Positions 19,108 through 40,704 of a stretch of 64,000 nucleotides of DNA are shown one piece after another (the first letter of the stretch is position 1; each line of letters begins with the position of its first letter). The stretch lies in contig DF237177.1 in NCBI GenBank assembly GCA_000708835.1, positions 72,563-136,562 on the forward strand, read 5' to 3'. The position numbers and the translations under genes are program-made. This stretch comes from Klebsormidium nitens. Lineage: Eukaryota; Plantae; Klebsormidiophyceae. Under the pieces are notes generated by a model, which saw nothing but the letters and a program-made list of their open reading frames with translations, had not been told where the DNA came from and did not search any database.

Positions 19108-19298
19108 GCTCCACCCGGCGCACATTGCAGACATCATTCGCTTCCCTGCATCATTGAGAGAATGATAAATACTTCACCGCCCAGAATTCCGCTCATTTGG
19201 CATTTCAAAAGAACAGTTGGCAACAAATTCCGAGATTCCAAGATTGATACACATCCGTTCAAAACAACCAAATTGTTGTATCCGCTGTATCAGTCTGC

Positions 19299-20077
19299 CT
19301 ATGGGAGGTTCCCTTGCGCATCCGTCCGCCCTAGCTCCTCCTTGGTCTTCAAACGAATCCCAAAGAAACCTCTAAGCCGCTTCTTACCGTCGATCGTTCG
19401 AATCAAGATGGCTTTTCCCCGCTCTTGTGGGAATCCTTTCAATCGCATCGCTCTTGTCAAACCGTCCCCCGCCAATGCCACATCATGCCCACTTGAGTAC
19501 AGAAAGTTTGTGAAGGCCTCGACAAACTCGATCCTGGTGACGCTTGCCGCCTCTCCCTCGGCCGTTTCCTTAGTAGTGCAAGCCTCGTCTATGAAAAATT
19601 GAAGCTTGTCGTTCTCTGAAGCGTACTCCCTTACAGCCGCGGAGAACTCCTCGGGGACTGGCGAGAGAACCTTTGAGGCGGGAGCTAGTGCCCTCTTTGC
19701 GTAGTACATGATCGCCCCCTGAACGCAAAAGTCTAGAGTGTCCGCTGCTCCTTCATCCGATTCGAAATATGGCTTCAGGGTTACATCGATGGGCCTGTGC
19801 ATCTTGTTCGTTGCATCGAGCTCGTGGGGATTCTTGAACGTGTAGTTGAACATGAGCAACACAAGCCGTCGAATGAGAGCGGTGTCATCGCTTGGAAAGT
19901 CCGGCCTGTAGTTCGTGAACAAACAAAGCTTGTATTGTGGCACGTAACTCTGCGGTTTGCAGAACAGCTCACGCGCATCAAGCTCGCCACCACCGCTGGC
20001 CTCTTTCACAAAAGATGCGTGAAGCACCTCTCTTCCTTCCGATTCGTCATTCGTGACAAACGTCTTTGTTCGAATCT
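19299..20077 (-). pseudogene. D5-like SF3 helicase, C-terminal part, cut by an N gap
   Basis: Motifs FVTNDESEG (Walker B), IKEASGG-like VKEASGGGEL, KLCLFTNYRP, TALIRRLVLLMF, and a C-terminal wHTH-like region ending RGFFGIRLK. Confidence 0.85.
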
Positions 20078-20269
20078 NNNNNNNNNNNNNNNNNNNNACC
20101 ATGCCGCTAGGGAGCCAAAACTATGAGTGCCGGAATTGGCCCTACCTGATCCTGCGAACGCCCAGATGCCGGATCATATGCAACGCTTACGACGGCCGGA
20201 TTACGGCACGATGCGTTGCCCCTTGCGCATGAAGCATATTGCAAAAAGCGAAACGAATCTTGATACAAT

Positions 20270-20385
20270 TGATACGCCTGATACGCATATTCACAGCAAG
20301 TGGTCATGTATGTAATGCTTCTTTCTTTTTCTTCTTTGAAAAACTTTTGTATACTTTATGTATGTATCTTGTATCAGGCGTATCA
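20270..20385. repeat. Second copy of the TGATACGCCTGATAC inverted repeat
   Basis: Arms at 20270-20284 and 20371-20385. The region 20164-21360 is a near-identical paralogue of 18881-20077. Confidence 0.85.
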
Positions 20386-20576
20386 GCTCCACCCGACGCA
20401 CATTGCAGACATCATTTGCTTCTCTGCATCATTGAGAGAATGATAAATACTTCGCCGCCCAGAATTTGGCTCATTTGGCATTCCAAAAGAACAGTTGGCA
20501 ACAAATTCCGAGATTCCAAGACTGATACACACCCGTTCAAAACAACCAAATTGTTGTATCCGCTGTATCAGTCTGC

Positions 20577-21868
20577 CTATGGGAGGTTCCCTTGCGCATC
20601 CGTCCGCCCTAGCCCCTCCTCGGTCTTCAAACGAATCCCAAAGAAACCTCTAAGCCGCTTCTTACTGTCGATCGTTCGAATCAAGATGGCTTTTCCCCGC
20701 TCTTGTGGGAACCCCTTCAATCGCTTCGCTCTTGTCAAACCGTCCCCCGCCAATGCCACATCATGCCCACTTGAGTACAGAAAGTTTGTGAAGGCCTCGA
20801 CAAACTCGATTCTGGTGACGCTTGCCGCCTCTCCCTCGGCCGTTTCCTTAATAGTGCAAGCCTCGTCTATGAAAACTTGAAGCTTGTCGTTCCGACTCCG
20901 AAGCGTACTCCCTTACAGCCGCGCTAAACTCCTCGGGGACTGGCGAGAGAACCTTTGAGGCGGGAGCTAGTGCCCTCTTCGCGTAGTACATGATCGCCCC
21001 CTGAACGCAAAAGTCTAAAGTGTCCGCTGCTCCTTCATCCGATTCGAAATATGGCTTCAAGGTTACATCGATGGGCCTGTGCATCTTGTTTGTTGCATCG
21101 AGCTCGTGGGGATTCTTGAACGTGTAGTTGAACATGAGCAACACAAGCCTTCGAATGAGAGCGGTGTCATTGCTTGGAAAGTCCGGCATGTAGTTCGTGA
21201 ACAAACAAAGCTTGTATTGTGGCACGTAACGAGTCTGCGGTTTGCAGAACAACATCACGCGCATCAAGCTCGCCACCACCGCTGGCCTCTTTCACAAAAG
21301 ATGCGTGAAGCACCTCTCTTCCTTCCGATTCGTCATTCGTGACAAATCTCTTTGTTCGAATCTGCATGAGATGGCTTGAGGCCGCAGAGGCATTAGCCTT
21401 GAACGTGGGTTTGATGAAGATGGCCTTGTTCCCCGCACAATTGTAACGTCCAAAGGCCTTTCGGAGTGCTTGCTTCAACACTCCTTTTCCATTCGAGCCG
21501 CTATGACCATTCATGATGACAAACAACTCTTCCAACGTCTCTCCAATAAGACAATAGCCAAGGAACATCTGGAGCCACTCGATTGTCTCCAGTGGAAGAA
21601 CATCCATCAGGAATGTTCGGAATCTGGCAGTGGGGCGTGTGGAAGCACCCGGCACGTATCTAGTTGTCTGATTGATGCACAAGTTCTGAGGATGATGGGG
21701 GAGCAAAGCACCGGTTCGAAGATCGATCAACCCGTTTGGAGCATTTGCAACTGTGGGATCTTGATCAAATCGGTCGAGCAGACCATTTACGTGCAGCTCT
21801 CTAACTGCAGAGTGCAAGCACTTACGTACGTCAGCAACATCTTGGACGTTGATCCTTCCAAAACTTGG
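20577..21868 (-). pseudogene. D5-like SF3 helicase, C-terminal half of a second copy, frameshifted and interrupted at 21868
   Basis: Motifs ANAPNGLIDLRTG (D5_N), GHSGSNGKG (Walker A variant) and VTNDESE. The frame changes near 21245 and 20890. Confidence 0.85.
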
Positions 21869-23467
21869 TGTAACGGCACGACTGCGCACCGACTTCTGGC
21901 TGCGCGCCAAACTCGCGGCCGCGCATCGTCCGTTATTATACGCTATCGACTTATTTGATGTATCGAATCACTACACGACACGTGTCTGGGTTACTGTTCC
22001 ACCGCGTGACCGTCCGATAAGACCCACGTGCACCGCGTGCGAAGGGAACCGTCCGATAGGCTTTCGAGACTAAGTGTGACGGTTGGACAGGGTCACACGC
22101 TGCCTGTCTACTTCACATGTGCGGAAACCATGCGAAGCTTCTCAGCACGCCTTGGGATCACCTCGTGCAAGAGCGCCTCTCAGAAAATTGCGTCTTCTTG
22201 NNNNNNNNNNNNNNNNNNNNGAACAGCTCGCGAGCCTCAAGCTCACCGCCACCACTGGCCTCTTTTAGAAAAGACGCGTGAAGAACCTCTCTTCCTTCCG
22301 ATTCGTCATTTGTGACAAACCTCTTCGTTCGAATCTGCATGAGATGGCTTGAGGCTGCAGAGGCATTGGCCTTGAACGTGGGTTTGATGAAGATGGCCTT
22401 GTTCCCCGCGCAATTGTAACGTCCGAAGGCCTTTCGGAGTGCTTGCTTTAATACACCCTTTCCATTCGAGCCACTGTTGCCGTTCATGATGACAAATAGC
22501 TCTTCCAGCGTCTCTCCGGTAAGACAATAGCCAAGAAACATCTGGAGCCACTCGATTGACTCCGGTGGAAGAACATCCATCAGGAATGTTCTAAATCTGG
22601 CAGTGGGGCGAGTGGAAGCACCCGGTACGTATCTAGTTGTCTGATTGATGCACAAGTTTTGAGGATGATGGGGGAGCAGAGCACCGGTTCGAAGATCGAT
22701 CAACCCGTTTGGAGCATTTGCAACCGTGGGATCTTGATCAAATCGGTCGAGCAGACCATTCACGTGCAGCTCTCTAACTGCAGAGTGCAAGCACTTGCGT
22801 ACGTCAGCAACATCTTGGACGTTTATCCTTCCAAAACTTGGCATGATATTGTCAAGCTCCTTTGCGCACGTCTCCATGGCCATTTTGATCTTCCTCATCT
22901 GCTTTGGATTGACTAGATTGGAATCGAGAGGCTTAGGGACACCGTCAACCACAAACCCCTCCAACTCGGGACGGCTGGCGTACAAAGTGCCTAAACACCT
23001 CTCTCTCTGCCTGTCATACCATGCCAAGAGACAACCCATCTGACATGTAAAGAGGCTCGAAACCAGGTTCGAGGTGTCTTGTACCCACGATGTCCCGTCC
23101 CAGACAAAAAAGAGCTGATCTCGACTCCTTTCTGCTTCGTTCGTGGTCACGAGAACTCGACCCTCGATCATGTAATGATATGCAAAGAGGCGTCCGAGAT
23201 TGGCATATGCCTGGGGGGCCGCGTGCTCTTTGACAATCTGGAGAAGCAAGTCCTGAGTCTCTTGACTCCCTCTCGTGTATCGCGTAATTNNNNNNNNNNN
23301 NNNNNNNNNNNNNNNNNNNNNNNNNNNNNNNNNNNNNNNNNNNNNNNNNNNNNNNNNNNNNNNNNNNNNNNNNNNNNNNNNNNNNNNNNNNNNNNNNNNN
23401 NNNNNNNNNNNNNNNNNNNNNNNNNNNNNNNNNNNNNNNNNNNNNNNNNNTGTTCAGCGCCGCTTCA
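21869..23467 (+). mobile_element. Termini of an LTR retrotransposon-like insertion in the D5 gene; the interior is lost or collapsed in gaps
   Basis: Foreign sequence begins TGTAAC at 21869 and ends GCTTCA at 23467. It is flanked by a 5-bp duplication CTTGG (21864-21868 and 23468-23472) that occurs once in the uninterrupted copy near 22837. Confidence 0.7.
22221..23289 (-). pseudogene. Uninterrupted middle segment of another D5 primase-helicase copy or allele, placed between N gaps
   Basis: A 363-aa ORF overlaps in sequence with both the upstream and downstream D5 pieces and shows scattered substitutions. Confidence 0.75.
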
Positions 23468-25081
23468 CTTGGCATGATCTTGTCAAGCTCCTTTGCGCAC
23501 GTCTCCATGGCCATCCTGATCTTCCTCATCTGCTTGGGATTGACTAGATTGGGATCGAGAGGCTTAGGGACACCGTCAACCACAAACCCCTCTAACTCGG
23601 AACGGCTGGCGTACAAAGTGCCCAAACACCTCTCTCTCTGCCTGTCAAACCATGCCAAGAGACAACCCATCTGACATGTAAAGACGCTCGAAACCAGGTT
23701 CGAGGTGTCCTGTACCCACGATGTCCCGTCCCAGACAAAAAAGAGCTGATCTCGACTCCTTTCTGCTTCGTTCGTGGTCACCAGAATTCGCCCTTCGATC
23801 AAATACATATATGCAAAGAGGCGCCCGAGATAGGCGTACGCTTGAGGAGCGGCGTGCTCAATCACAATCTTGAGCAGCAAATCCTGCACATCTCGCGTCC
23901 CCCTTGTGTACTGAGTGACAACTCGCATGTCGTCGTGAGGATCCACGGGATCTGCGGTAGCATCTTGCAAGGCGGCCTTCAAGTTCTCCAAGACCCCCAA
24001 CTTTTTGACGGGCTTGTGCGAGCACTCGTCTCCATGGCAGCGGTAGTATACATGCAGTTCCCTCTTGAGCAGATTGAAGTTGTTGCTCCCCGAGTGCATA
24101 TGGCCAAAGAAGCACCGTCGAGGCCCATGCGTCCGGTAGCAATAGTATGTCCCGTACAGGCCGTGTGGTAACGACCCTGCGTACGTGCTTGTTGAATCGC
24201 CGGCCTTCTCTGACAGCAATTTTGAGAGTTCTGCCATCAAGAGCTCCCTGCCGTGTGGCGGTTCCAAACTTGGGCTCGAGCGATCTTGCTTGAAGCTTGG
24301 ACTTTCCACACGTCCTGGCATGGTTGCATCAATTCTTGCTCCCGAAACCTCGCCACCCTCCTCCTCATCAATTGTTGCCGCACCGGTACTATGACCTGCA
24401 TGATTGTTGACCAATTCTGCGAGCCAAATGGGCATAACTTGGCACGCTTCATAGCTGGGAGGTCCATTTATCCACTCATAGTATGTTGCAAGCTTGCCAT
24501 GAGCATTCAAGTAGCTCGTTGGTGAAGCGAACACAACACCACCGATTCCTCTTCCATCAACGCCAAAAGTCTTGTCGTCGACCTTGAGACCTTGAAAATT
24601 TCGTCTCCACTTGAGACCTGGAGAGTCGAGCTTGAAGTACAAGTGCAACCCACCAGAGCCGGTCCTTGCGTTCAGTGTCTCCGGCTCTCCGTGGATCTCA
24701 ACAAGTTGCTGCCAGAGCTCTGTCCCTGGTCGCTTCCCCCCTTTTGCAGCCACATCAATGTCTAGCACATACACTCCACTGACTCCAGCAAGTATCGCAA
24801 GCCCGTTTGCATCCCGCTTCTCCTTCATTGCTTGATTGATGGACCGCTCCCACTGCCTCTGTATCTTTGATATGTGCATACTTGTCAGGGAAGTCAGCTT
24901 GCTTCGAGCCTCTATTCCGATCGCAAGAGACGGACACTGGGAGTGCGTATAAGCCGTTGTTACAGAGTCGTTGGATCTCGTTCCTGATGCTGACGGGTCC
25001 TAGGGCCTTGGGGTCTCTGGCTGTCTGAGCCTTCCCCTGGGATCGAAAGGCGTTTGCCCGTTCAACATCCGACGTAGCCAT
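23468..25081 (-). pseudogene. N-terminal Prim-Pol (bifunctional primase/polymerase, AEP) half of the D5 primase-helicase
   Basis: Motifs NGLAIL, VLDIDV (DxD), RTGSGGLHLYF and VDGRGIGGVVFASP, plus a Zn-like C..H.S.N..C..C region. Frameshift near 24880. Confidence 0.85.
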
Positions 25082-25189
25082 TCCTTTCTATACTCCAGTG
25101 AGGAAAGACTATGAGACGATTGAAACGCGCTCCCTTGACATCTGCGTTCTCGTACCCGGCTTTTTTTCGAAGCTTCATTGTAGGGCGTC

Positions 25190-25525
25190 ATGGTCCAAAG
25201 CACAAGTCCTTTAATCGACACCGACACTTATCCATGTCATTGCCGCGTTTGTGAGACGAGTCGTGCTTACCAGAAGGAGCACCATGTAGAGCACGCGCAG
25301 ACCGTTCGAAGATATTATGGGCGCAATCGTGAGAACATCCTCGCACAAAAAGCCTACAAGCGCTTGCTTAATGGGACCACAAGAAAGCTCCACAAGGCCA
25401 CAATTCAGCGCTTGATAGACGCCGGGTATGATGTGTCGCGGACGGCCGTCCCCTTGGACACGGAAGGCGAGTCCAAAGCCCCCACCGTGTTTTTGAGTGC
25501 GTTCACAAGCATCGAAGTCTCCTGA
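25190..25525 (+). CDS. Conserved small hypothetical protein with a CxCxxC motif, homologue of 61427-61756
   Basis: CHCRVC..YYGRNRENILAQKAY..LIDAGYDV aligns with CPCVTC..YYIRNRHDILLTKAF..LLAAGYPV. Confidence 0.75.
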   Translation: MVQSTSPLIDTDTYPCHCRVCETSRAYQKEHHVEHAQTVRRYYGRNRENILAQKAYKRLLNGTTRKLHKATIQRLIDAGYDVSRTAVPLDTEGESKAPTVFLSAFTSIEVS

Positions 25526-25565
25526 ATGAGGGGTAAGTGGCAAGGTGGTCAAAGAGCCTGAGCGT

Positions 25566-26618
25566 CTAGAACTGGATCTTATAACCGTCCGGTCGGTAAT
25601 GGAGCTCATAGTGGCGCATCGCGATTGGTGCCGTATGCAACATTGACCTGGCAAGCTGGTCTCGTTCAGAGAGGCTCGGCGCATCCTTCATAGCAGTGCT
25701 GACAGTGATTTTTCGAAGGAGGCACGATCCCAGATTTGAGTCGGGATAGATGGCCGCTAAAAACTTTGTCAGGTAACCGGACCCCATTGGAGCATCTGGT
25801 GTTCTCATTCGGCTCAACAGGTACTTTCGCGGAAAAATAGCAAGACTTTCCGCAATCACGTTGCAAAGCCGGACCGGTATGTCGAGAATCTGCGGCCCGT
25901 GCGTTTTGCCGGTTTTGTAGGACTTCAGGTGGAGCCTATAGCTGCCCTTTGCATACTCCAGGAGGTAGTTGCGGGATCCCGCCATGAGCTCACGCGCGGC
26001 AGTGCTCCCAACCTCTTCGAAGCGCACGATGGGAAGATTGCTCCAATCATTACGGATCGCCGGCATTTGTGTGTACAAACAGAGCACGAGGTAGCGACAA
26101 AGCGTCACTTTGTCTCCAACTGTGACCTCTTCTGGCTTCTTTGGCGCGATGGATCGATTGACTTTTCGTTGAAGCTCGATGCGGCGTTGATTGATTTCGT
26201 CCAAGGACTTCCAGTTTTTGGCCTCACGCTCTGACATATGCTGGGGTGGTCGAGCTTCTTCCATGGCCTTTCTAACAGTACAGTATCGTTTGAAAAGTGC
26301 CTCGTAGGTCTGTTGATCACTGGGCCACAGTTTTCGGGCGATCACCAAGAGTGGACTTATGCTCGTGGCTTGTGTAGGCAATTTGTCTGAATACACGTTA
26401 TCCAGATACTCTATGATCTTGGTCGTATCTTTGACCCAGTCGAGATTCTCGAAATCCTCCCTCGAAGCATGCATGCTCTTAAAGAGGCGCATCACTCGTG
26501 CACAGTACTGCTCGACCGTGTGCGGCTTTCGTGTCGAGTCATCAAAGATTTCGTGAAGCAGCCGTTCTGCTGACGACAAAGTTGCTATAACCTTTCTGTT
26601 TGCATCTGAAGCTGCCAT
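25566..26618 (-). CDS. Tyrosine recombinase/integrase (virus/PLV-type), intact 350 aa
   Basis: Catalytic series R (PAIRND), K (YKT), degenerate HxxR (CLLRK), H (SMLHT) and Y (MRHY). Confidence 0.85.
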   Translation of the reverse strand: MAASDANRKVIATLSSAERLLHEIFDDSTRKPHTVEQYCARVMRLFKSMHASREDFENLDWVKDTTKIIEYLDNVYSDKLPTQATSISPLLVIARKLWPSDQQTYEALFKRYCTVRKAMEEARPPQHMSEREAKNWKSLDEINQRRIELQRKVNRSIAPKKPEEVTVGDKVTLCRYLVLCLYTQMPAIRNDWSNLPIVRFEEVGSTAARELMAGSRNYLLEYAKGSYRLHLKSYKTGKTHGPQILDIPVRLCNVIAESLAIFPRKYLLSRMRTPDAPMGSGYLTKFLAAIYPDSNLGSCLLRKITVSTAMKDAPSLSERDQLARSMLHTAPIAMRHYELHYRPDGYKIQF

Positions 26619-26785: not shown

Positions 26786-27436
26786 TTACGCCACTCCACT
26801 ATCGGCCGATATCTGAATATTGCCAGATACCCGAATATGGGTGTACATAATTTCTAAAACGGGGGCCTTTTTAGCAATCCAGTATCTAGAAGTGGAGTCT
26901 CGTGAAGATTCGGTGGCATGGCGAACCTTGTTGGGATTTGCAAGCGCCTCTAATTCCAAGACGGGTGCCTCACTCCACACCATGCTAGGGGCATATTCGG
27001 CACTCGATGGAGAACGGGCTTGAATGTCTGTGCAACTGGTTGGAAAAACCAACTCTCGTTCATGCGACATGTTCTTTAGCCGTGATTCCCTCAGTCGTAG
27101 CTTCTTTGCTTGACGTTGAGCCCGAGACGCGTTTTTGAGAGCAATCCGCCAACTGACCTTCACAGCAAATGGGCCATGGATGCCGCTTCGATCCCAATAT
27201 GAAAAAAAACCTTCTGCATTCAGGGAGCGCACAAGCGCTCTGGTAATATGACGCAGGTTAAACGGTTCTGCAAGAGCGCGGATTCCCGCCAAGGCAGCTG
27301 GATCAAGGATCGTTTCAAGCAATCCAAATTCCTTGAACGATCTTACTATTGCGGTTCTAGCACTCTGAAGAACCGCTTGGTCCATCTGCTCGATCGCAAA
27401 CGTAGTCGGAGGACGAAAGCCTAAAATTGCATCCAT
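26786..27436 (-). CDS. Orphan hypothetical protein upstream of the recombinase
   Basis: 216-aa ATG ORF. Its 5' end is duplicated at 27751-27850 across an N gap. Confidence 0.45.
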   Translation of the reverse strand: MDAILGFRPPTTFAIEQMDQAVLQSARTAIVRSFKEFGLLETILDPAALAGIRALAEPFNLRHITRALVRSLNAEGFFSYWDRSGIHGPFAVKVSWRIALKNASRAQRQAKKLRLRESRLKNMSHERELVFPTSCTDIQARSPSSAEYAPSMVWSEAPVLELEALANPNKVRHATESSRDSTSRYWIAKKAPVLEIMYTHIRVSGNIQISADSGVA

Positions 27437-27509
27437 TCAAATCGTTGAATACGGCGCACAAAAGAATCACAAGATATCATTGCACACAGCCGCTAAGTGC
27501 TTGATGAGC

Positions 27510-28480
27510 TTGATGACGTCAGCAGCCATTCCACCAAATTATCCGAATAATGGGTAGAATGGCCGGACATCATGTGCATGTACCGACCAATACCACCAAT
27601 TATCTGTGATCACTGGCGCAAAGTTGTCTCAGCGTCCGTGTTTTTCACGTACTTTTTGAGAGCGGCCCCTCTGATGACGTCAGCAGCCATCCCCACCAAT
27701 AATGCTCTGTAATCAACGGTGCGAAGGTGTNNNNNNNNNNNNNNNNNNNNCGATCGTACTATTGCGGTTCTAGCGCTTTCAAGAACCGCTCGGTCCATCT
27801 GCTCGATCGCATACGTAGTCGGAGGACGAAAGCCTAAGATTGCATCCATTGTGAGGCTAGAGTACGGTCGACAAAAGAAAGCATAAACCAATTGCCAATC
27901 TGGTTGGTCCACACCATACATGCGGCTTTGAAGAGAAAAACGTGAAGCTCTTGTTAACCATTGGCAACGTGTGGACTAGCAAGCAAAAAATGCCTTGCTT
28001 TCCTAAATGTATGGTGGATGGCCGGCCCGATTTGGCTGGTCCACACCTTGCATGCATGGAGTCAAGCAAAGGGGGTCGGGCCGAGGGGGTCAGGCTAGAG
28101 GGGTCAGACAAAGGGGGTCAGGCTAGGGGGTTCAGATAAAGGGAGTCAGGCTAGGGGGGTCAGGCTAGGGGGGTCAAATAAAGGGAGTCAGGTTAAGGGG
28201 GTCAAGCTAGGGTGGTCAGACATTGAGGGGGTCAGGCTAAGGGGGTCAGACAAAGCGGGTCAAGCAAAGGGGATAAAGCGACTTGAAAAATCCATCAGAA
28301 TTCGGACACTTGGACACTTTCGCGCCATTGATCACACACAAAAAGCGCAGGGAATGGCTGCTGACGTCATCAACAATGGTTGACTTGAGAACTCTCATCA
28401 AAAACTCGGATACCGTACCTGGACGCTTTTCGCGCCATCGATCACAGGTGACAGCGCAGAGGAAGGCTGCTGACATCATC
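27510..28480. repeat. Inverted repeat family TGATGACGTCAGCAGCC: two direct and two inverted copies
   Basis: 27510-27532 is a perfect 23-bp reverse complement of 28351-28373. Further copies lie at 27672 and ~28461-28480. Confidence 0.75.
28071..28265 (+). repeat. G-rich short tandem repeat (GGGGTCAGGCTAG-like)
   Basis: More than ten degenerate GGG(G)TCA(G/A) units with G-runs of 3-6. Confidence 0.8.
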
Positions 28481-28519
28481 CAAGGGGGTCGATTTAATGA
28501 TTGCCATATGCATGCGACC

Positions 28520-29010
28520 GACGTCAATTTGCACCAGCTTGAAAACCTTGATGTATAGAACGGTGGTGCAAATTGTCAGCCGCCACGCCGCGCGCTTTTT
28601 GGGTATATTGTAGCTGATTGTGGCATTGCCTGCTCACAAGTGTTGACAATCTGCACTGGCTTGAAAGCCTTGATGTATAGAACGGTGGTGCAAATTGTCA
28701 GCCGCCACGCCGCGCGCTTTTCGAGTATATTGTAGCTGATTGTGGCACCGCCTGCTCACGAGTGTTGACAATCTGCACCGGCTTGAAAGCCTTGATGTAT
28801 AGAACGGTGGTGCAAATTGTCAGCCGCCACGCGGCGCGCTTTTCGGGTATATTGTAGCTTATGGACGAATGACTCGGTGTCAATTTGCACTGGCTTGAAA
28901 GCTCTGATGTATAGAACGGCGGTGCAAATTGTCAGCCGCCACGTCGGCGCGCACTTTTTGGGATGTTGTAGCTGATGGTGGGAATCCATCGTGATTGACA
29001 GATCGCACCG
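28520..29010 (-). repeat. Array of 112-122 bp units with a palindromic core (GACAATTTGCAC..GTGCAAATTGTC), left arm
   Basis: GGTGCAAATTGTCAGCCGCCAC starts at ~28565, 28687, 28809 and 28921, in reverse orientation relative to the 29540-30760 array. Confidence 0.9.
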
Positions 29011-29180
29011 GCAAGATGGGGCCTCGCACGGACCGGGTATCCGCCGTCTCTATGGATGCTCCGTAGCACGTCTACCGAGTACGACAGCCGGTGCATGTGA
29101 TACGCTGGCCTTTGTTGTGCCGCTTCACACACTTAAGGAGATCGTGAGTCTCCAAGAAGCACCAGATCCAGATCTTTGCA

Positions 29181-29531
29181 ATGATTTGCCTACCAGACGG
29201 AAGCCATTTGTGTCGTGCGGTGGGCGTAAGCTTTGAAGGCAGGCAAGCTGCGGTGCGCACCCTTCGACCAGGGCAAGAGCTGCTGCTCGTTAGGGATGCG
29301 ACGAACGAGCACGATCCGCATTCCATCGCGATCTTCAAGGCGGGAGATCTGGGCTCGCACCTTGGGTTCGTCGGGCGGGACAGCAACCATCACGAGGCGT
29401 TTGACGCGGCTCGTGCGGGACGGACACAGTCTGCACTTGTGCACAGCGTCGGCCCCTGCAGCAGCAGCGGACTCTGGGGGTACACCATGAGGGTCGGGGC
29501 ACCTCATGATAGCTCGAGTATTATTGCATGA
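29181..29531 (+). CDS. Stand-alone HIRAN domain protein
   Basis: AVGVSFEGRQAAV..L.PGQELLLVRDATNEHDPHSIAIF..LGFV matches the HIRAN pattern (R-E-P-x-N-x-x-D-x-N-A-I variant). Confidence 0.8.
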   Translation: MICLPDGSHLCRAVGVSFEGRQAAVRTLRPGQELLLVRDATNEHDPHSIAIFKAGDLGSHLGFVGRDSNHHEAFDAARAGRTQSALVHSVGPCSSSGLWGYTMRVGAPHDSSSIIA

Positions 29532-29539
29532 TTTCGTTG

Positions 29540-30760
29540 TGGCGCGGTTGACGATCTCTACCATGGTGCTATACACCAGAGCTTTCCGATCGGTGCAAAT
29601 CCACTCCGATCGACCATAGCCGAAAGCGCGCGGCGTGCCAGGTCGGCTGACAATTTGCACCACTGTTCCATACATCAAGGCTTGCAAAGCGGTGCAGATT
29701 GTCAACGCGGAGGCGTTCTCACCTCCAGCTACAACATCACTGCAAAGCGCACGGCATGGCCGGTTGACAATTTGCACCACCATTTTAGATATATCAGAGC
29801 TTTCAAACCAGTGGCGATTGACGTCGAGGTGTTTTCGAGATCCACTCCAACATGCCGGAATGCGCCCGGCGTGGCGACTAACAAGATGCACCACTGTGCT
29901 AAAGATTATAATCTCAAAGCAGTGCAGATTGTTGACAATGAGGTCTTTCTTCCATCAACTACAACATCGCTGAAAAGTGTGCAACATGGCGGCTGACAAT
30001 ATGCACCCCCGGTCTATACATCAGAGCTTTCAAGCCAGTGCAAATTGTCGTCGAGGTGATTCCACGATCACCTTCTACATGCCGAAATGCCGTCGGCATG
30101 GCGGGTGACAATATGCACCACCATGCTATACATCAGAGCTTTTCAACCGGTGCAGATTGACGTCAAGCTGTTTCCACGATCGACGGCTACTACATGCGAG
30201 AAAGCGTCCGGCGTGGCGGCTGACAATTTGCACCACCGTTCTATACATCAGAGCTTTCAAGCCAGTGCAAATTGTTGTCGAGGTGTTTCCACGATCACCT
30301 TCTACATGCCGGATTGCGCGCAGCATGGTGGGTGACAATATGCACCACCATGCTATACATCAAAACTTTCCAACCGGTGCAGATTGACGTCATGCTGTTT
30401 CCACGATCGGCTACTACAGGCGAGAAAGCGCGCGGCATGGCGGGTGACAATATGCACCACCGAGCTATACATCAGAGCTTTCAAACCAGTGCAAATTGTC
30501 AACGATGAGGTCTTTCTTCCATTAACTACAACATCGCTGAAAAGTGTGCAGCATGGCGACTGACAATATGCACCCCCGGTCTATACATCAGAGCTTTCAA
30601 GCCAGTGCAAATTGTCGTCGAGGTGTTTCCACAATCACCTTCTAAATGCCGGAATGCGCGCGGCATGGCGGGTGACAATATGCACCACCGTGCTATACAT
30701 CAGAGCTTTCAAACCAATGCAAATTGACATCGAGGTGTCTTCACGATCGGTCACAACAGC
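29540..30760 (+). repeat. Array of about 11 units of ~113 bp with the same palindromic core, right arm
   Basis: Repeated TGACAAT(T/A)TGCACC-ACCG.TCTATACATCAGAGCTTTCAA-CCAGTGCA(A/G)ATTG separated by more variable ~55-bp linkers. Confidence 0.9.
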
Positions 30761-30974
30761 TAAAAATGCGTGCAGCGTGATCGGCTACGGGCTCGTATCG
30801 ACGAAGAAGTCAAATACCTTACAATCGCGGTCAAAACGCGGCTTGATTAATCGCAATGGGCGACATCCTTAGATGTAAGATTCCTAAAATCAACCAAAGC
30901 CTACAATAATTAGTGATAGATACTTTCAAATGCAGCTTGACAACCTCAGATATCTCTTTTGAGACTCGCCCCCT

Positions 30975-33900
30975 TCACCGGCTGATCATGCACTCCACCT
31001 CTGCGACCCTCTGCGGGGTGAAAAAACCGTATCGCTCGTGCAAGCCTCGATAGATTGCGGGCGTCAACAGGTGGGGAGTTTTGAATTTGCCCCCGCTCTT
31101 TTTCGCCTTTCGTACCTCGATCCCGAGGCCCGCTCTGAGCACATTCGCCACCGCATTCCGCTTCTGGGCCCATTTCTCGTTCACTCTCCCATCAGCAGCT
31201 TTCGAGGGCCTGGAGATCTGTTGCTTGAAGCCGTAGAGATTGAAGATGGTTTTCAAGCGCTCCTTGCTAGGCCCAATGAGCTCCGTATAGGCAGCCTGCA
31301 CGCGCTCCTCCGACACCTCCCACCGCTCTGACTCGTGGTTCAGCGCCGTCTCCTCGCACTCGACAAGAAAGGCCAGGACGCGCACCGCAAACGGCACACG
31401 GTTGACAGGGTCGCGTAGTTCACGGACGTACTCCTGGACCATGTCCGCCTCATTGATCTGGCCGAGCGCTCTGTCCAGGTCTCCGACGAGGGTGTCGAAG
31501 CGGTGCTCGCGGAATCTGCAGATTGCAGGGAGCGTTTGAAGCAGCCTGACATTTGACCACGATCGACCCCACGACACAGCCGAACTGTGAAAACAGCCCC
31601 AAGATCGCGCCAGAGCCGTGGCAGATTCAAAACGAACCTGACTGCAGGTCTCTGAAATCAGCTTGCCCCGCATCCGAAACATCCTCTGTGACTCTGCGCC
31701 CGAACTAGCATGCCCATGGCACGGAACCCAAAGCCCACGCAAGAGCCAACCCAAAATCATAGCAAACCATGCCTCACATCAGCTCGACCACACCAAATCA
31801 GGCTCAAGGCGGATCCGAGACCAGCCTAATCGTGCCCCAAATGTAACTGACCGCTGCCCTTGGAACAACCCGAAAAGAAGGCCCACGGCACACCCACAGC
31901 AAGACAATAGCAGGCCCTAAACAGCTTGACTTTTGGCGGGATTCGACCTGATCGCACATCAAACAAATGTTTTGAAGTTGAACAGCCAGCAAGCGGGTCA
32001 ACGAGTGAAAGATACGTGAACTTTGGGTACGTTTGAGTTCCAACACAGTGGAACTCAATGACAGCAAAACTTCGAAGGCTTTCATTGTGGCTTGAGACGA
32101 CGCGCGATGGGAACAGTGCAGGTACCTCAGATAGTTGGCATGGGCCTCTTTGGTACCCTTCGCTTCGTCCGAGTCGGCGCAAAAGCGGATGTAGAAGGAG
32201 TGATCGACTCGGCCAGGGTCGACTCTGTACTCCTTCGTGACCATCTCGTACAAGTATTCTTGCAGCTGCTCCTTCGAAGTCAGGTCGTCGGGTCTCTCGC
32301 ACAGAATCTCGTACTGCTCCGCACTGATGATGTACTTGGCTCGCCAATCTTTGTCATTCAGAAGCTCTGGGCCCTCATCAAAGCCGAGGGGTACCTCTGG
32401 GGGCGGGCGTCCCGGAGTGCCCTGAGAAAGAAGGCAAGGACATGTGACTTAGTATTTGGCGGATGTGATAAGCGATCCTGCATCAATGGTAGAGAGCACG
32501 TGACTCTCGATCGTGAAACAATGATGCTATGGTTATCTCCCGCAACGCTGCCCCCTCGTAAAAGACACCTGTCATCCTCTGAACGTGAGCGACACACGCC
32601 AATGTGCCCACATACCTGGAGTACTTGTGGGGGAAAGCGCCCTGTTTGAATGCAGAGAAAGTCTGGTTCATGCAAAGAGCCTAGGCCTCGAGGCAGCTGG
32701 GCAACCTCACCCTCGGTTCGATGTGCTCAACAGTCACCACAAACCCTTGGTTCTCCAGGTCGGCTCTCAGCTTCGGCACGTACTCCAGGTAGCTTTCGAC
32801 CTTTGCGAGGATGTTGTTCGCGTACAAGACGCAGCTCGCTGACGAGCGGTCGCAGATGCCCTGCGAACCCCTCAGAAAGTGAAAGCCCGATGCGTCGCCG
32901 AGCATCTGCACGATCTGCCTGTCGTCTCGCTCGATCGCCCGAAAGACCGCCTCTGTCGAGCGCGGCAGATCCACTGCTGACGAGATCACCTGCTTGCAAT
33001 AGATGGTGGAGTCGGTGACCGTCCGAAATCGAGCATGCTGCTGAAGCAGCGTCTCGACTGTTGGACCCGTCAGGTTGTTGAGGGCAAAAGGGACCGTCTC
33101 CTCAGCGTGCGGCTTCTCTTTGGAGACACCCGGACCTAGCTTCGGAGAAAAGGCCACGAGATCCGCTTCCAGATAGGTGTCAGGCTCGGCCATCGCCCTC
33201 TGGAAGAAATCCTCGTCATCTCTCGACCTTTTGTCCGCGTGCAAAAAGATGCCGCGGCGATCGGACTCGGCGGGTGGGTTGTCGATGTTGAAATGGTGTT
33301 CCAGGTTCTTCACGAAGCGCTTGGATGTCGAAGGGCACTGCGCAAAAAGACTACGAGCAGACTTGTCAGCTTTATTGAGCAAGAAGCAGATAAGCGCCAA
33401 ATCACCGGACTAGAAGCCTTGTTATACCCCAGAAATTCCTGACCGTAGCCCCGTCGATCCCCACCTGACCGCGCCCCAGGAACACTTTGACCGCGGCTCA
33501 AAATCAACCCGAACCCAGGCCCACAGCAGACCACAGACGAACAACCGCGCGGGCCGGCCCGAAATCAGGCCCACAGCAGACCACAGACAAACGACCGCAC
33601 GCCCCCACTGTAACCATCATGATCACGGCCCTGAACTCTAAGCCTACGGACCCCAAATCCACCTTAACTGCAGCTCGAAACCACCCCCCGAAACCAGGCC
33701 CACAACAGAGCAACGACGAGCCTGACGGCGCGCACGCATCTTGAAGCAGCCTAGCATGGCTCTGGATTCTAGCACGGGCCCCATGGCCGCGCCCAAACCC
33801 GCTTTTTGAACCCTGCCCATGTTCGATTGAAGCCCAAAACGAACCTGGAACCAGTACGAAAGCAAGCCCCGCGGCCAGCTGGGCCAGCTTGTTCTGTTCT

Positions 33901-36900
33901 GGTGCTCGCTACCTTGCGGTTCAACCTTGGAGTCTCTCGAGCAGCCTGGAGCGAGAGCTTACCACGACCTTCGTGCCTCGAGCGACACGGTCCAGCACAT
34001 CCTGCACCACGGTGCCGATGCATTCGAGCGACCCATCCCTGCCGGAAAGACCCGGATGGTCGCCCGCCTCGTCGCCGGGTATAGGCCCCTGTTCCGGATC
34101 CTGTGGAGGGCCCCATCCGGCCGGACCATGAAGAGGTACTCCATCACCCGCTTGCAGTCGATGTTGGCGTCCATGCCGATGACGACTTTCGCTCCCGCCA
34201 CAAACGCCTCCAGGCAGGCCAGCACCCTGCCCCGTTGGCTCATGACCTCAGAGTTGAGGTTCGTGAGCACCATGTCCATCTCGTCCATCCCCACGACGTC
34301 CATCCTGGATTGCACGCGGTGAATTGAGTTGATGCAGCAGACAACGCGGGGGGCGTTGATAGGCCCTGGTGGCGCCTCCAGGTACAGCACGACGTCCTCC
34401 ACGCCCGCCTCGACCAAGTCCTGGTGATACTTGCGGGAGAGCGAGATGTTGGCTCCAATAAGGAGGAAGGAGAGCCCAGGGTTCCTCCCGACCATGGCCA
34501 CCTCCCACTCCACAAACGCCTTCGACTTCCCGACCCCCTTCTTGGCAGAACTCAGGATGGTTCGCTTGCGGACGTGCGTGAGCTCGAACACGGGGTAGGG
34601 GCGCATCCTCAGATTCTCTTCGTAATCCTCCGTCCAGCCGAGCGCTGTGAGGACGTCCAGGGGCAGCACCCGACACTCGCCCCTGCAGAAAAGAGGGCAA
34701 GAGACGCTCCTGAGCACTGGCATACTGAGCGCCTATGCCATGTGGCACTCAGTCTGTCAACCTTGCGTTAGTCTCAAGACAGACCTGACTGTGGGTCTGA
34801 GGTGCCCCCTCCCCCTCTTCGAGAATCAGCTTAACGGCCGGCAACCAACCAGCCCCGAAACCAGCCCAACAACAGCCAGAAGCGATCTTACAATTCGCTC
34901 AAAAAAAGCCTCCCCGCGACTCAAACCAGTCCCAAAACCAGGCCCTCTGCAAACAAGAAACGAGCTTGCCATACGCCCAACTTCAGCCTGACCGCGCTTT
35001 TGGGATCAGCCAGACTGCGGCTCCAGAACAATCTCGAAAGACCGAGAATGTTCGAGCTTAACTGTACGCCCAAATCAGCCTGATCGCGCTCCTTAATCAG
35101 CGAGACAACGGATGCAAAACAGTCTTCAACCAGATCAAGAGCAGCGCAAAAAACCCCTTACTGCGCGCCTCAGATTCAACCCGACAACACTCTCAAGACA
35201 ACCCAACCACAGCTTAAAGCAGTCCCCAACCAGGCCCACTGCAAACAAGAAACGAGCCTGACCATGCGCCCAGATTCACCCTGACCACACTCTCAAGACA
35301 ACCCAACCACAGCTTATCCGAAGCAGAGTGAGTTTTTGACTGACGCCAATGACGCCAATGGTGCTGTGCAAGGCAGACCAACAAGTACCATGCTCTTAAC
35401 TGATGCCAATGATGCTGTGCAACAGTAGACCAGGCTCTTGATTGACAATCAGTGATGAAAGCAATATGATAGAAGGCAGTTTTGCCATGAATGTCCCCAC
35501 CTTAGCGCCAGCCTGCCGTAACAGACTGTTTCCCACGCGAGGTATGCAGTTGATTTGAAATCAATCATCTGCACGGATTCGCTACCAAAATTTGATGTTA
35601 AGGATAGTGGTACGCTGAAGAAGCTTCGCGTTTTCCCTTTTGACCGAGAGTTTGTGGAAAAGCCAAAGCCAAATACTAACGAGCGGCTGATTGATTATCA
35701 GCTTTCTGAGAAGATTACAGCAAGTCCCAAACCAGGCCCACTGCAAACAAAAAACGAGCATGACCATGCGCCAAGATTCACCCTGACCACACTCTCTTCA
35801 CAAGCAACCTGACCGCGCTTTTGAAACCAGCCGGGCTGCGTCTCTGGAGCAGTACCAAAATCAGATCCTCGATCGAGCAAACAAGCCTGATTGTACGCCC
35901 AAAGCAGCTTGACCACACGCTCCCTAACTAGCAAGACAGCGGACGCAAACCAGTCTCTAGAACCAGACCCATAGGAGGAAGAAACGATCCTCACAATGCA
36001 CCCTACTTAACTAGGGTGCCCAAATGAAGCCTAAAACAGTCCCAAATCATGCCTATTGAGAACAGTCTGGAATCTGGATTCACAGCACACCCGAAACGAA
36101 CTAAGCCTATGTGCCCCTAAGTCTGCACTAACTCCTTTCGACGCCTGAAGCTTTTTTGCCAGTGCAGGTTGACAACCAAGCCATGCCAACGCTTCTCAAA
36201 ACTTTGCCAACCACTGGGTCGACTCACCTGCAGCTGTTCGCAAAGCATTGGTACCGTGCAATGCGCGGCTCATCCCGCTTGTAGATGAGGTACGGGTTCT
36301 GGTTGCCCAGAGACGTGTGGCGCCTGCCCGCGATGCAGCACGTGGGTTCGGGCGAACGGAAGTGGACGAAGAAAACCCCCGGCCGCTCCTGCACCACCCA
36401 GTCGAGGGCGGCCCCGGGATGGTCCTGCCTGCAGCGGGCGAGGAGGACAGCCCGCTCCTGCTCGGTGAGGTCCTCACCGGGCCTCTGTGAGGTGCTCGCA
36501 TCGTCGAGGGCGAGCGCTCTCTGCCGGAAGGCCCCCACGCGGGCCGGAGCAGGCGGAGCGGGCCTCGCGGACGTCCACTCCCCCAGGAGGTCAGCGCTGA
36601 TCTCGGTGGACACCCTCCGCTCCGCTTCCGAGTAAAGGCAGACTAGGTGGTCCGCGATCCCCTCGGAGCTGCCCTCCGAAGGGATGAGGGGGCGGAAACG
36701 GTCCCCGAATTTGGACGACCTTAGCAGTCGGAAGCAGCGCCGGCGGTCATAAACTGAATCGTCCCACACATATTCGGATCCACCGTCTTTCCTTAAGAGC
36801 TCAACACTGAGCTTCAGGTCGTCTGGGGGGCTCTCCAAAAAGCACTGGAAGGCCTTCCCGAATGCTCTCCTGGCTTCTAACCCCCCCAGGTAGAATCCCT

Positions 36901-38011
36901 GGAGCACCTCGTGCACGCTGTACTTGAACCCCTGCTTCGGTGGCCGCGCTTCACCATGCGCCTCGCACGCCTGGAAATGGAGCGCCGCCTCAGGGACGTT
37001 GAGCACCGAGGTCAGGAAACGATCCCGAACCGAGTGGAAAGCCTCCAGGCGCCGCTCCCAATCGCTGCGGTTCTCGACAGGGGCCGAATTGTCCAGGTCA
37101 AAGTAGATGCGCCAGCAGGCATCGTCTTGAATGATCTCGTACCAGTGAGCGTACGGGCCGATCAACCTCCGATGCGCTACCAAAGCTGCAATATCTTGGA
37201 AGCTGCCATACCGTTTTGCCCCGTTCCTGTTGAGGTCCTCGGCAACCAGGACTGTGTGCCCGGCTGCCCGCTGTTGCTGGAGCGCAATATCCAACTTTTT
37301 GCACCAGCCGGGCCCCCTATCTTCGACTGATGCAGCCTGGGGGGGCTCCCTGGGCAGCTGCGCAGGCGGCTCCATGGGCGGAAGTGGGGATGATGGCTCT
37401 GCAGACGGCTCAGGTGCAGCGGGCTGACTTGTGTCCGCTGCCGGGAGCTGGTTTGGCAGGACGACGGGCGCCTGCTCCTGGTGGGCGAGGGGAGGGGAAG
37501 GGGCGACTGCTGGGGGCTGACCCGGGACAACCTCGGCCCATGCATTGTCGGCGGGGCGCGGGGCTATGACCAGGGGCACCTGGGGCTGGTCAGCGAGGGG
37601 GTGAGAGGGTGGGTGCCCAGTGGGGAAGGGAGGCTCACGGGGCTGCGAGAGGGAGGGAGCCAAACCCTGAACCTCATCCATGGAAGGCTGGTTGGCCGGC
37701 GGCGACGGTGGGGCCTGATCATCTTCTACTGCGGATGAAGAGGGGGTCTTCCTCCCACTAGGAACAGGCGCACTCGAAGCGGGGTCTTCCGCCCGAGAAG
37801 AAAAAGACATGGACGGCAGAGGGGACGAAGGGCTCGCGTTGCGGATAGTGCGGGCCAAGGCATCCCCCGTCCCGCATGCACCCAGGGGGCGCACGCGCCC
37901 ATATGTTTTCAACCGCTCCTCTCGCGCAGCCGCCTCTTCAGCGCCTCGCTTGGCTTGCAGGCGGTCTACCAGAGCTCCAATGTCTGGAATGGGAGCGTCA
38001 GTCACCAAACC
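30975..38011 (-). CDS. Intron-split fusion of an AEP/PrimPol primase, a Zn finger and a UL9-like (replication origin-binding) SF2 helicase; one apparent frameshift
   Basis: Exon ~38011-36228 has WYEII..RIYFDLD, KYSVH, DDSVYDRRRCFRLLRSSK and CC..H..C..C. Exon 34682-33963 has SAKKGVGKS and MDEMD..MDANID. Exon 33337-32711 has VV|CPSTSK, AFSPKLGPGVS and QQHARFR. Further exons lie near 32421-32000 and 31600-30975. Frames join at CAG|gtgagt/ctgcag| and GTG|gtaagc/gcgcag|, but a 1-nt shift is needed near 34045. The 5' end is unresolved. Confidence 0.75.
33480..33720. repeat. Intronic degenerate tandem repeat (CAGGCCCACAGCAGACCACAGAC)
   Basis: Units at ~33516, ~33566 and ~33695. Confidence 0.6.
34850..35950. 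repeat. Intronic degenerate repeats (AAACCAGGCCC.CTGCAAACAA.AAACGAGC...)
   Basis: Units at ~34934, ~35228 and ~35728, each followed by similar downstream sequence. Confidence 0.65.
35546..35720 (+). pseudogene. Fragment of a third D5-like SF3 helicase inside an intron, antisense to the host gene
   Basis: LKSIICTDSLPKFDVKDSGTLKKLRVFPFDREFVEKPKPNTNERLIDYQL resembles D5 motif C plus the arginine-finger region. Confidence 0.6.
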
Positions 38012-40265
38012 CTGCAGCAGTTTGAAGAGGGTTTATGTAAGCACCCAAAACCACGCCTGAGAACCTTGGGTCCCTGATTATCAAGGTGCTAACATGCCAA
38101 TTAACGATCCGAGAACATATATTGGGCAATCTTCCCCAGCAAAGCGCGAGCGATGCATCCTGTTTGTCAGGGTTTGGGGGCCAGTTGCATACGCACAAGC
38201 CGATTGCTTGCGCCTTGACCTTTGCCTTAACCTGGATGTTGATCCTAACCTTAACCTCACGCATCAAATAGGTAGGGCCAACCGCATCGCGGTTCAGTGA
38301 GCTGCAACAGAGGGAGGTGTTCTACCAGGCATCTTACGACGGGTGGCGCATGGCGCGGGCCTCCAAAGTCACCAAGCTCGGTTTATGTACAGCTTGCTCT
38401 TCACGTTGCATTCCGGAGGCCTTCAATGCCCCTAGAGTTCGGCGGTGAGCTTCAACGGCCGCTCGACTGGCCGCCCGAGCTGCCTCATCCACTAAGACAG
38501 GGTTTGGTTTTACCCTTTTGCTGTGGAAGCAAAAGGAGAGGTCGGGTCAGGACTGGGAATGTCTGCAGCACTAGTGGTTGACGGCAGGCCTGCTCCAGAA
38601 GCAATCTACCCAAGCTCTGGGACAATGCGATGAACCCCGCCTCAATTGAAAGGGGTGCCCTTGCCATTCGCAATCCTCAAAGAGCGCCACTTGCATCTGA
38701 GGGCAAACGAATGAGACGTACGCCAAAATGAGGAGACAAAGCAATCAGCTGAGCCAACGAGCTCACCGGGGCTTCTTCGGAACCGGCCGGCCATCCTTGG
38801 CGCCACCGGTGTTGATGGCGTCGCTTCGCCGTCCTGGTCCTGTACCTGAAGGCCAACGGGTCGGCAAACGTGTGAGCTAAAAATGAGCGCAATCGCAGCA
38901 ATCAAAGTACCGCTGATGTGTGTGATGGGGCTGGAATCTGCAGAAGCGAAGCCAGGTTCTAGCCAGTTTAGGATGGCCTTTGTGGGAGAGGCAAATGGCA
39001 AGGAGCAGCCAATGAAGCATTGGGCACGAGATGAGGGCATGCAAGTGGCACTGTCCTGGCGAGCTTGGCAACGCGTGCCACGTAGAGGACGGTGCTACAA
39101 AGATGCAACATGGCCAGAGGCTCACCATCACCCCAATCTCTCCAGCTGATGGCACCGCCGTCGATTCCATAGCAGCCCCACTCGGGGGCACGTCATGCAG
39201 CAGGAGGTCTGTCTCCGCCCAAGGATCCTCTCCAGGAGGCGCCTGATCACAAGCAGCAAGCGGAGAAAGACATCTGTCAAGTTCAGGCGCGAGACCTGCG
39301 CTATCTGGGTGGAAATAAGCGCCTGATCAACGAGATCAAGATCATCGGGGAAGACCAGGAGCGGCTGCCGGACGACCATCCCCCCAGGGTCTTTGGCCAG
39401 ATACGCCCAGCAGTGACAACCCTCAGAATTGATCAGAGAACTAGAGGATGCTCACTTCGGAAAGATGCGCCGCGGCGCCATCAAGCACTAGTGTGTCCCC
39501 TCCCGATGCTAGGGAACACTCCCCTTCCGCCCGGATTCCCACTGAAGATGGCCCCGGATTGCTCTCGATTCCGCCCATCATCAGAAGCTTCGCTGCAAAC
39601 GATCGACCAAACTAGATTGATCGTTGACGTAGATAGGCAGGCGACCGTGGAAATGACCAAGAATCTCAGCAGAGCGAGTGGGCGATCTTATGAGGGCAGA
39701 ACACTGAAGCGTCAAGGCTCTTGAGCTTCAATGTATCTTTTGCGCACACAGCTGAGGCCTGTTCTGAACCTTTTTCCAACGTCCGGGGTTTCACTGATGG
39801 TACGGTTAGGGGCCAAATGTGAAGCCGGATCTCACTTCCCATTATGATCATCTAAGCAACTTACCGATCAGATGTCTGCTTTTCGGTGTCGCGTCCCTCC
39901 AATATCCGTCTTGCTGCCAGACGTTGCCACCTGTCAAGGAGAGGGAAGGCAATCAATCTTTTGGTATGCTTCGGGGCAATGGGAAAAGGCTCGAAAGAAG
40001 CCTCCAAGCTTTGCGTGGAGAGGTCCGCAGGTAACATACAGACAGATTGCAATTTGAGACCAGCTCTGCAAAGTGAGGGGTTTGCGCTCGTGATCAAGTG
40101 AAGAGTGCACCAGGCGAGCCCTCACCCCTCTGATGTGACTCCTCGTCAAGGGCTCGTGCCAGTTCCGCCTTCACTTTGTACACTTCACAGCTCCGTGCCC
40201 ACTCTGCAGGATGCCGCGAAGCACATGTCTGTGCAACGAGCGCTCACATACAAGGCATAGCATGC

Positions 40266-40540: not shown

Positions 40541-40704
40541 CTGGTGAGGAAAGACAGAGAACAGGGATCAGGAACACACTTCAAGAAGTGTCAGACTTCA
40601 GCAAGTGTTGCAGAAGATGCTCGCCCTTAGAGGATTTCTGGCAGATGCGATAAACACACGACACTTGAAAACAACAAGCTGGGTAGGTCCAGGAAAGTGT
40701 CCGG

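Follow-up and report, generated by a model that had tools for sequence, protein, structure and literature searches.

The locus examined here raises the question of what function, if any, is served by two arrays of palindromic repeats that face each other across a HIRAN open reading frame in the genome of Klebsormidium nitens. The window analysed is a stretch of 64,000 nucleotides (contig DF237177.1). A sequence-only reading of this DNA had suggested an hr-like origin for a UL9-like protein, an invertible or excisable tyrosine recombinase (YR) cassette, or a foldback element that captured HIRAN.

The two arrays flanking HIRAN are far above chance expectation (TRF scores of 631 and 985). About four to five reverse units had been counted on the left and about 11 forward units on the right, and four units with a further half unit, and 11 units, respectively, were found. 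The left array (28,517-28,958, minus strand) is composed of four full units of the repeat, designated family A, with periods of 122, 122 and 112. Next to it on the same strand (28,963-29,012) is a half unit with one arm only (nhmmer E 0.24), which breaks off within the palindrome centre, immediately ahead of 29,016, where a contig has a loose end; an arm-like motif is also present at the position of the half unit in a HIRAN paralog. The right array (29,540-30,759, plus strand) comprises 11 units with periods of 112-117 after a degenerate first unit. Each unit is a 57-bp spaced palindrome with 14-bp arms (TGACAATWTGCACC / RGTGCARATTGWCN) and a 29-bp centre, as had been described earlier (palindromic arms around a conserved centre of about 30 bp), and the arm variants read TTTGCAC, ATGCAC or TCTGCAC. 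In nhmmer searches with a profile built from 17 units, including the units that it scored, 14 of the 15 full units around HIRAN gave E values of 1e-24 to 1e-34, and the first right unit gave 4e-8. The linkers had been called variable; they do vary, but in the right array they are mutually homologous (61-72% identity) and are not unique spacers. The units share ancestry through tandem duplication, and they include a 567-bp higher-order repeat. Only two of nine periods are divisible by three, so the arrays encode no repeat protein, and no Pfam family reached the cut-off for ORFs overlapping them. Rfam returned no matches for the repeat.

The ORF between the arrays (29,181-29,531, plus strand, 116 aa) was recognised by Pfam as HIRAN (PF08797; E 6.4e-6, 26.4 bits versus a cut-off of 24.7). 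It has two homologs, of 115 and 122 aa, and a weak match to PDB 3k2y (E 0.09). HIRAN is a domain that binds 3' DNA ends. Both the HIRAN assignment and its position between the arrays were upheld, but the term "stand-alone" is unproven since a conserved block at 29,016-29,134 (plus strand) may be an exon. This block shows 22 differences in 119 nt from the high-depth HIRAN paralog described below; five of the nine listed differences fall, as a weak signal, at third positions of one frame, and Pfam gave no match within the block. It could possibly be an upstream exon or a promoter. HIRAN has almost no cover in sequencing run X7, whose RNA nature is a program's guess, and no RNA data set was listed as covering 28.4-31.0 kb; neither observation was counted as silence.

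The repeat is not restricted to the surroundings of HIRAN. Across the window, 24 family A units were detected by nhmmer at E<1e-5, all at 28.5-43.3 kb; the few weak partial matches besides these fell likewise inside this interval, and none was found with the profile in the other 49 kb. Twenty of the 24 units are on the plus strand, the left array being the exception. It is thus the inversion of one array block that makes HIRAN look enclosed, and this block appears to be an old, fixed arrangement, common to paralogs that are about 18% diverged. The nine units at 40.7-43.3 kb lie in the probable intronic 5' part of the neighbouring PrimPol-UL9 gene. They comprise a third array at 40,691-41,073 (plus strand; three units and one partial) and two sets of three degenerate units at 42,331-43,269 (plus strand), where a 20-N gap separates two copies of one block (97%). 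One RNA-type contig jumps over 40,207-41,435, the stretch in which the third array is located; the ends of this jump were classed as non-canonical, although an AG is present at a distance of 4 nt, and the third array is therefore likely within an intron. Four family A array sites are thus found within 15 kb, and there are more in other contigs. A further palindromic array, of family B, occupies 41,669-42,060 (strand not assigned) with a period of about 121 and AGTCAAAA-type arms, and its homology to family A is weak (z 3.3 and 1.8).

The gene on the right of the arrays is a spliced PrimPol(AEP)-UL9-type SF2 helicase gene (30,975-39,578, minus strand) with six GT-AG introns. The origin-binding helicase reported beside HIRAN was accordingly found as a UL9-type helicase, but as the 3' part of a PrimPol-UL9 fusion. 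Six CT..AC joints between 31,515 and 38,767, in GT-AG contexts, were present in the X7 contigs, in which AEP exons are joined to UL9 exons. The NCBI model KFL_002280190 covers 30,978-37,810 (100% identity over 88% of the query), and the start at 39,578 was deduced from a paralog. The AEP exon matches PDB 5l2x (PrimPol-like, E 5e-4), and the helicase part matches PDB 9hgi/9hgj (UL9-type SF2, E 3e-8). Homology to UL9 is confined to the helicase domain (profile positions 567-720; Pfam 47-213 of 820). The RVKNL motif, given as the origin-recognition motif of UL9 (PMC12543377), was absent from the six PrimPol-UL9 family proteins examined. For the C-terminal domain, AlphaFold models reached pLDDT values of only 31.9 and 35.8, and the best score of the C-terminal exon in an atlas search was 0.80, below the useful level. 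At least five PrimPol-UL9 paralogs with 77-87% identity are present at NCBI. The right array begins about 215 nt past the stop codon of the gene, and 30,832 is the end of an X7 contig.

Contigs assembled from sequencing runs were used to follow the repeat beyond the window. In the DNA run X1, two of the four contigs with a diverged UL9 3' end carry a family A piece close by (24 nt long in one, 27 nt in the other, no more than 450 nt away). The linking joints (30,132 to 31,111 and 30,247 to 31,049 in window orientation, the second also in X7) have sides below 30 nt and were flagged as short, and their chance probabilities are about 0.01 and 0.004. No such joint was seen for the other two contigs among those listed, the main listing holding 15 of 22 joints and 33 of 213 pieces and a second one 15 of 96 joints. 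A reverse arm is located upstream of HIRAN in both of the HIRAN-paralog contigs; one of them, 4,969 nt long, with a depth of 206 and about 82% identity over its aligned parts, carries in addition a forward unit on the downstream side of HIRAN. To the right of HIRAN, however, no bin of the window attains this depth, so that at >=80% identity this contig does not run on into a UL9 gene. Further family A arrays elsewhere appear as contig joints. A linkage of the repeat to UL9-like and HIRAN genes is therefore supported. The depths in X1 also argue against a common genome-wide minisatellite: they were 18-60 for the arrays and 17-30 for the contigs of the locus itself, versus 662 for a different repeat, family C, in a comparison made at >=80% identity, which more diverged copies would escape, and with contig depth not equating to copy number, so that all readings from depth are indirect. 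As the repeat lies beside UL9 and HIRAN paralogs, it is likely linked to an element, and is neither a common satellite nor a coding repeat. Scans of metagenome contigs and genome contigs with the repeat pattern gave no matches. The sole match in viral contigs was a lone palindrome in AT-rich DNA, not an array, and was rejected as chance. No relatives of the locus were obtained in a YR-based scan of viral and metagenome contigs or in a scan of viral contigs with a PrimPol-UL9 alignment.

Because the repeat occurs at both ends of the PrimPol-UL9 gene as well as beside its paralogs, the arrays are likely cis parts of a large virus-derived mobile element. Our tentative preference, held at somewhat less than an even chance, is that they form, within this element, a putative iterated replication origin bound by its primase-helicase. 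An iterated, hr-like origin is favoured since an oriS-like geometry is found beside a UL9-type helicase with its own primase, a likeness that was noticed post hoc. HSV-1 oriS contains two inverted boxes, GTTCGCAC/GCTCGCAC, separated by an 18-bp run of AT (PMC13458718; PMC12543377), and 33 nt were counted between GCAC and GTGC in the oligo table of PMC13458718. In family A the inverted boxes likewise end in GCAC and have the same facing, with 31 nt between them, so that the boxes are about three turns apart in both, and a UL9-type SF2 helicase gene adjoins. However, the spacer of oriS is AT-only whereas the family A centre is 48-68% AT, and the exact oriS box has no copy in the window. The palindrome is moreover iterated 24 times here, and the helicase is fused to PrimPol, spliced and multi-copy, with no sequence match to UL9 beyond the helicase domain. 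In the mechanism envisaged, a PrimPol-UL9 dimer would bind the two inward-facing arms, would open the moderately AT-rich centre and would prime synthesis with its own AEP domain, and HIRAN could be an accessory that binds 3' ends.

The baculovirus hrs, which were named in the sequence-only reading, are described as scattered arrays of imperfectly palindromic repeats with origin and enhancer activity; in SpltNPVII an hr has 3-8 units, each 64 bp long and containing a 24-bp palindrome (PMC4535591). The arrays studied here are similar to them in being several and dispersed, in the imperfect palindrome of each unit and in the variable unit number, but they are located in host-integrated algal DNA and have units of 113-122 bp with a 57-bp spaced palindrome. 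No baculovirus family was found among the 147 window ORFs scanned with Pfam. The repeat thus belongs neither to the hrs nor to the herpes origins. In the literature searched, no DNA target is described for UL9-type helicases outside herpesviruses. If PrimPol-UL9 does bind the arms, a substrate-protein pair would be ready at hand for testing whether herpes-style origin recognition predates herpesviruses.

The conservation pattern of the units agrees better with paired protein-binding sites than with selection for a hairpin. The first arm shows 94-100% identity, both inside an array and from one array to another, compared with 60-91% for the centre and 22-61% for the downstream linker; between distant arrays the values are 95%, 60% and 22-27%, respectively, partly biased by the fact that distant arrays were recognised by their arms. 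Among ten right-array units, with the degenerate first unit left out, the first arm was the best-conserved 14-nt window (permutation p 0.0016), and after removal of the CG/CHG columns 17 of 20 arm columns were invariant versus 10 of 38 in centre and linker (p 2e-5; 10 right-array units), both p values overstating the significance because the units, tandemly duplicated and sharing the 567-bp repeat, are not independent. Departures from pairing in the 17 family A units were uncompensated in 47 and compensated in 5 of 238 cells. As the arms are over-conserved and compensation is scarce, putative protein sites are preferred to a hairpin, and we infer that the arms are such sites. Selection on the hairpin had been considered on the basis of 10 both-side changes; these had included doubtfully aligned family B rows, and it was rejected with the 5 versus 47 of family A alone. 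The folding z-scores of single units (-1.6 to -4.1) are as expected of any such palindrome.

A close rival of the origin reading, possible although on the unlikely side, is that the arrays are neutral tandem-repeat cargo, which would have spread by slippage and unequal exchange in introns and flanks of element genes, with one block inverted once by chance. Introns of the same PrimPol-UL9 gene carry other repeat families (33.4-33.9, 34.7-36.2 and 41.7-42.1 kb), the unit number and order of the right array are rearranged in contigs of runs X5 and X8, and the left and right arrays have variants in common but without mirror order, all of which is consistent with neutral turnover. So is the finding that much of the asymmetry between the arms vanishes once the CG/CHG columns are dropped. 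The same removal, however, leaves the arms more invariant than centre and linker, and the near-identity of the first arm between distant arrays, in part a matter of how these were recognised, also speaks against neutrality. Conversion between arms and arrays, together with faster decay of CG-rich linkers, would be a neutral account of the arm conservation. If the neutral explanation holds, the arrays serve just as an annotation marker for the element family.

A YR had been placed on one side of the HIRAN arrays. It is indeed present (25,566-26,618, minus strand) but lies 1.9 kb from the arrays, beyond a 216-aa ORF, family C repeats, a minisatellite and a 20-N gap (27,731-27,750), to the right of which the window is gap-free from 27,751 to 41,569. 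The YR is an open frame of 350 aa with residues R189, K235, R302, H328 and Y337 at the catalytic positions and with 2,611 relatives at E<=0.001. Its assignment as virophage/PLV-like was reached in two steps, via the relative P0036 (33% to the YR), which matches a Sputnik-type virophage contig at 24%. The 216-aa ORF (26,786-27,436, minus strand) belongs to no known family and is multi-copy, and a second copy of its 5' end is found past the gap, at 27,751-27,879. On the other side of the YR are a small CxC ORF (25,190-25,525, plus strand), a PrimPol-D5 helicase gene that is partially duplicated in tandem and interrupted by gaps (19,299-24,999, minus strand) and a KDZ-type transposase gene (14,685-18,780, plus strand), for which the Pfam matches, CxC4 in this copy and KDZ in a second, are both below cut-off. 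The module of KDZ, PrimPol-D5, small ORF and YR occurs twice in the window (YR 44% identical; small ORF 36%, counterpart at 61,430-61,756), with the second KDZ-type gene at 54-58 kb and with KDZ joined tail-to-tail to YR/PrimPol-D5 in both copies. In X1 the YR module has a depth of 300-690; in X7 it has next to no cover, which again was not counted as silence.

Adjacent YR and PrimPol-D5 genes are a likeness to PLVs and virophages that have an OLV11-like YR and an AEP/PrimPol-SF3 replicase, the YR being placed via its relatives. PLV-type YRs, including an OLV11-like YR, have been proposed to be integrases whose att sites adjoin the gene (PMC4642659), and the pairing of YRs with AEP/PolA replicases is reported as common (bioRxiv 10.64898/2026.10.13.758929). 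The present locus differs in its tail-to-tail KDZ gene, in the lack of detectable terminal repeats and in that neither a capsid nor a packaging ATPase was detected among the window ORFs by Pfam or PHROGs, libraries that miss PLV capsids, with 2,547 bases of the window being N. As regards KDZ (Kyakuja-Dileera-Zisupton) transposons, KDZ-type genes lie 10 kb left of the arrays and again at 54-58 kb; Zisupton elements, however, are described with TIRs and an 8-bp TSD (PMC12730594), whereas no element ends, terminal repeats, TIR or 8-bp TSD were located at this locus, and nothing marks the arrays as subterminal repeats of a KDZ element. We infer that a single element family unites HIRAN and the arrays with the UL9 gene and with the YR/PrimPol-D5/KDZ module. 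The copy in the window is probably decaying, in view of a one-letter frame break in the helicase (near 34,035), the degenerate units and the YR module without RNA cover in one RNA-type run, and the intron-rich, transcribed PrimPol-UL9 gene may have been domesticated and have no origin role.

A bolder version of the origin reading, which we regard as fairly unlikely, would be a capsid-less, self-replicating composite element that combines KDZ, a virophage-type YR, PrimPol-D5, HIRAN, a transcribed PrimPol-UL9 initiator with introns and iterated oriS-like origins and has a young, high-copy or episomal member. The young member would be represented by the 4,969-nt contig, which has about 10 times single depth and could stand for near-identical copies or an episome. 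If this were true, a herpes-like pair of origin and initiator would exist in a nuclear element of a streptophyte. That the KDZ/PrimPol-D5/YR module recurs suggests that this alga, a near relative of land plants, harbours large composite elements of a class not described before, and the surrounding composite element may merit more attention than the HIRAN cassette. Neither this repeat nor the module was found described in the literature searched, which excludes subscription journals and Repbase as well as supplements, the last of which may list these loci among viral insertions. Retrotransposons of K. nitens and NCLDV core genes in Klebsormidium have been treated elsewhere (PMC5890265; PMC5294986).

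The other function of hrs would be that of enhancers (PMC4535591), and the arrays might accordingly be enhancers or host transcription-factor sites that drive the spliced PrimPol-UL9 family. In favour of this, the arrays are located in 5' introns or upstream, and also at the 3' end, of genes whose family has good cover in X7; the RNA nature of X7 is the guess of a program, and we consider the enhancer reading unlikely.

A foldback-type non-autonomous transposon, whose repeat-built arms would have captured HIRAN and been moved by KDZ or another DDE transposase, is in our view quite unlikely. Inverted tandem-repeat blocks around a middle segment are indeed the outline of foldback elements such as Tetris, Galileo and FB (for Tetris, see PMC4079207), and the array-HIRAN-array layout recurs in the paralog at about 10 times depth. 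However, the two arrays can be aligned colinearly at no more than 77% identity, and they are not mirror-ordered; the outer flanks do not match each other and thus contain no shared flanking domain; a search reaching 60 and 78 nt from the outer ends found no 8-9-nt TSD, and the one 7-mer that it gave is at chance level; and the repeat occurs also in direct orientation 10 kb away, at 40-43 kb. Moreover, the high-depth contig continues unbroken for about 4.4 kb past HIRAN, without a match to the UL9 gene at >=80% identity, which suggests that the cassette is only part of the repeated unit.

Recombination sites of YRs are built of inverted binding arms around a 6-8-bp spacer, and in integrons the attC boxes (RYYYAAC / GTTRRRY) are separated by unique cassettes, unlike the homologous linkers seen here. 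That the arrays are sites of the neighbouring YR, delimiting an invertible or excisable cassette, is very unlikely: the YR frame is open with its R, K, R, H and Y positions, an 8+7+8 small inverted repeat is present in the linker of two units and PLV-type YRs are proposed integrases with adjoining att sites (PMC4642659), but the centre of the conserved palindrome is 29 nt instead of 6-8, no conserved core with 9- to 11-bp arms exists, attC boxes number zero on the plus strand of 28,450-30,800, the orientation is the same in X1, X5 and X8 contigs (which drop rare variants), no strand-change joint appears among those listed, the YR lies across the N gap, and its module, but not the arrays, stands at 15-30 times single depth.

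Two further repeats occur between the YR and the left array. Family C, with a unit of about 105 bp, is at 28,280-28,490 (plus strand) with inverted copies at 27,500-27,730. It has only a 30-nt linker motif in common with family A (E 0.044), and the idea that it is family A minus the hairpin was rejected, the whole-unit comparison being not significant (z 1.3). Repeat finding also revealed a 14-bp minisatellite at 28,058-28,272 (plus strand).

The KDZ-type transposase genes of the window belong to a four-gene module that is present in two copies (14,685-26,618 and 54,004-62,822), each with a spliced KDZ transposase gene on the plus strand, a PrimPol-D5 helicase gene (D5) on the minus strand, a small CxC ORF on the plus strand and a virophage-like tyrosine recombinase (YR) gene on the minus strand. 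The two copies are deeply divergent (YR 44%, D5 37%, KDZ up to 58% and the small ORF 36%). As predicted from its genes, this conserved unit combines two integration enzymes with a primase-helicase. In the DNA sequencing run X1, whose contigs were aligned to the window at 80% identity or above, depth over the aligned part of the module was 300-690.

An identical 23-nt motif was found upstream of both KDZ genes in opposite orientations (13,252-13,274 and 51,810-51,832), and the second motif is followed by a near-perfect 48-nt hairpin (51,912-51,959). The last intron of the KDZ gene adjoining the second D5 gene contains an 82% repeat of the D5 3' end region (57,637-57,858 and 58,234-58,458). The other D5 gene includes overlapping partial duplications of 90-95% (18,881-23,910) with N gaps between them, which may be copies merged by the assembly.

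One unbroken X1 contig of 4,969 nt, aligned at 29,016-29,662, bears a HIRAN paralog together with arms of family A, the 113-122-bp palindromic repeat arrayed around the HIRAN ORF, and has a depth of 206, about ten times that of the HIRAN locus, although depth is not equal to copy number. We infer that this contig could represent a young multi-copy element or an episome.

Besides family A, the repeat families B and C were recognized. The array of family B (41,669-42,060) agrees with family A in its period and in the length of its palindrome (59 bp) but differs in its arms, and the homology between these two families is weak. Family C, with a repeat of about 105 bp, lies at 27,500-27,730 and 28,280-28,490 in diverging orientation with a short middle between; its depth was high in both the DNA and the RNA-type run, and in one X1 contig a C unit was joined to an A unit.

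Within a repeat-built intron of the PrimPol-UL9 gene there is a weak D5/primase-like fragment on the plus strand (35,522-35,725; PHROG E 0.001-0.08), which gave no match when compared with the window's own D5. A spliced minus-strand gene at 48,100-50,300 has a P-loop-like motif near 49,400, spotted by eye; no Pfam match was obtained for the pieces of this gene that were scanned. The spliced sucrose-phosphate phosphatase gene at 9,859-12,300 (Pfam S6PP) is an ordinary host gene and forms the left boundary of the mobile region.
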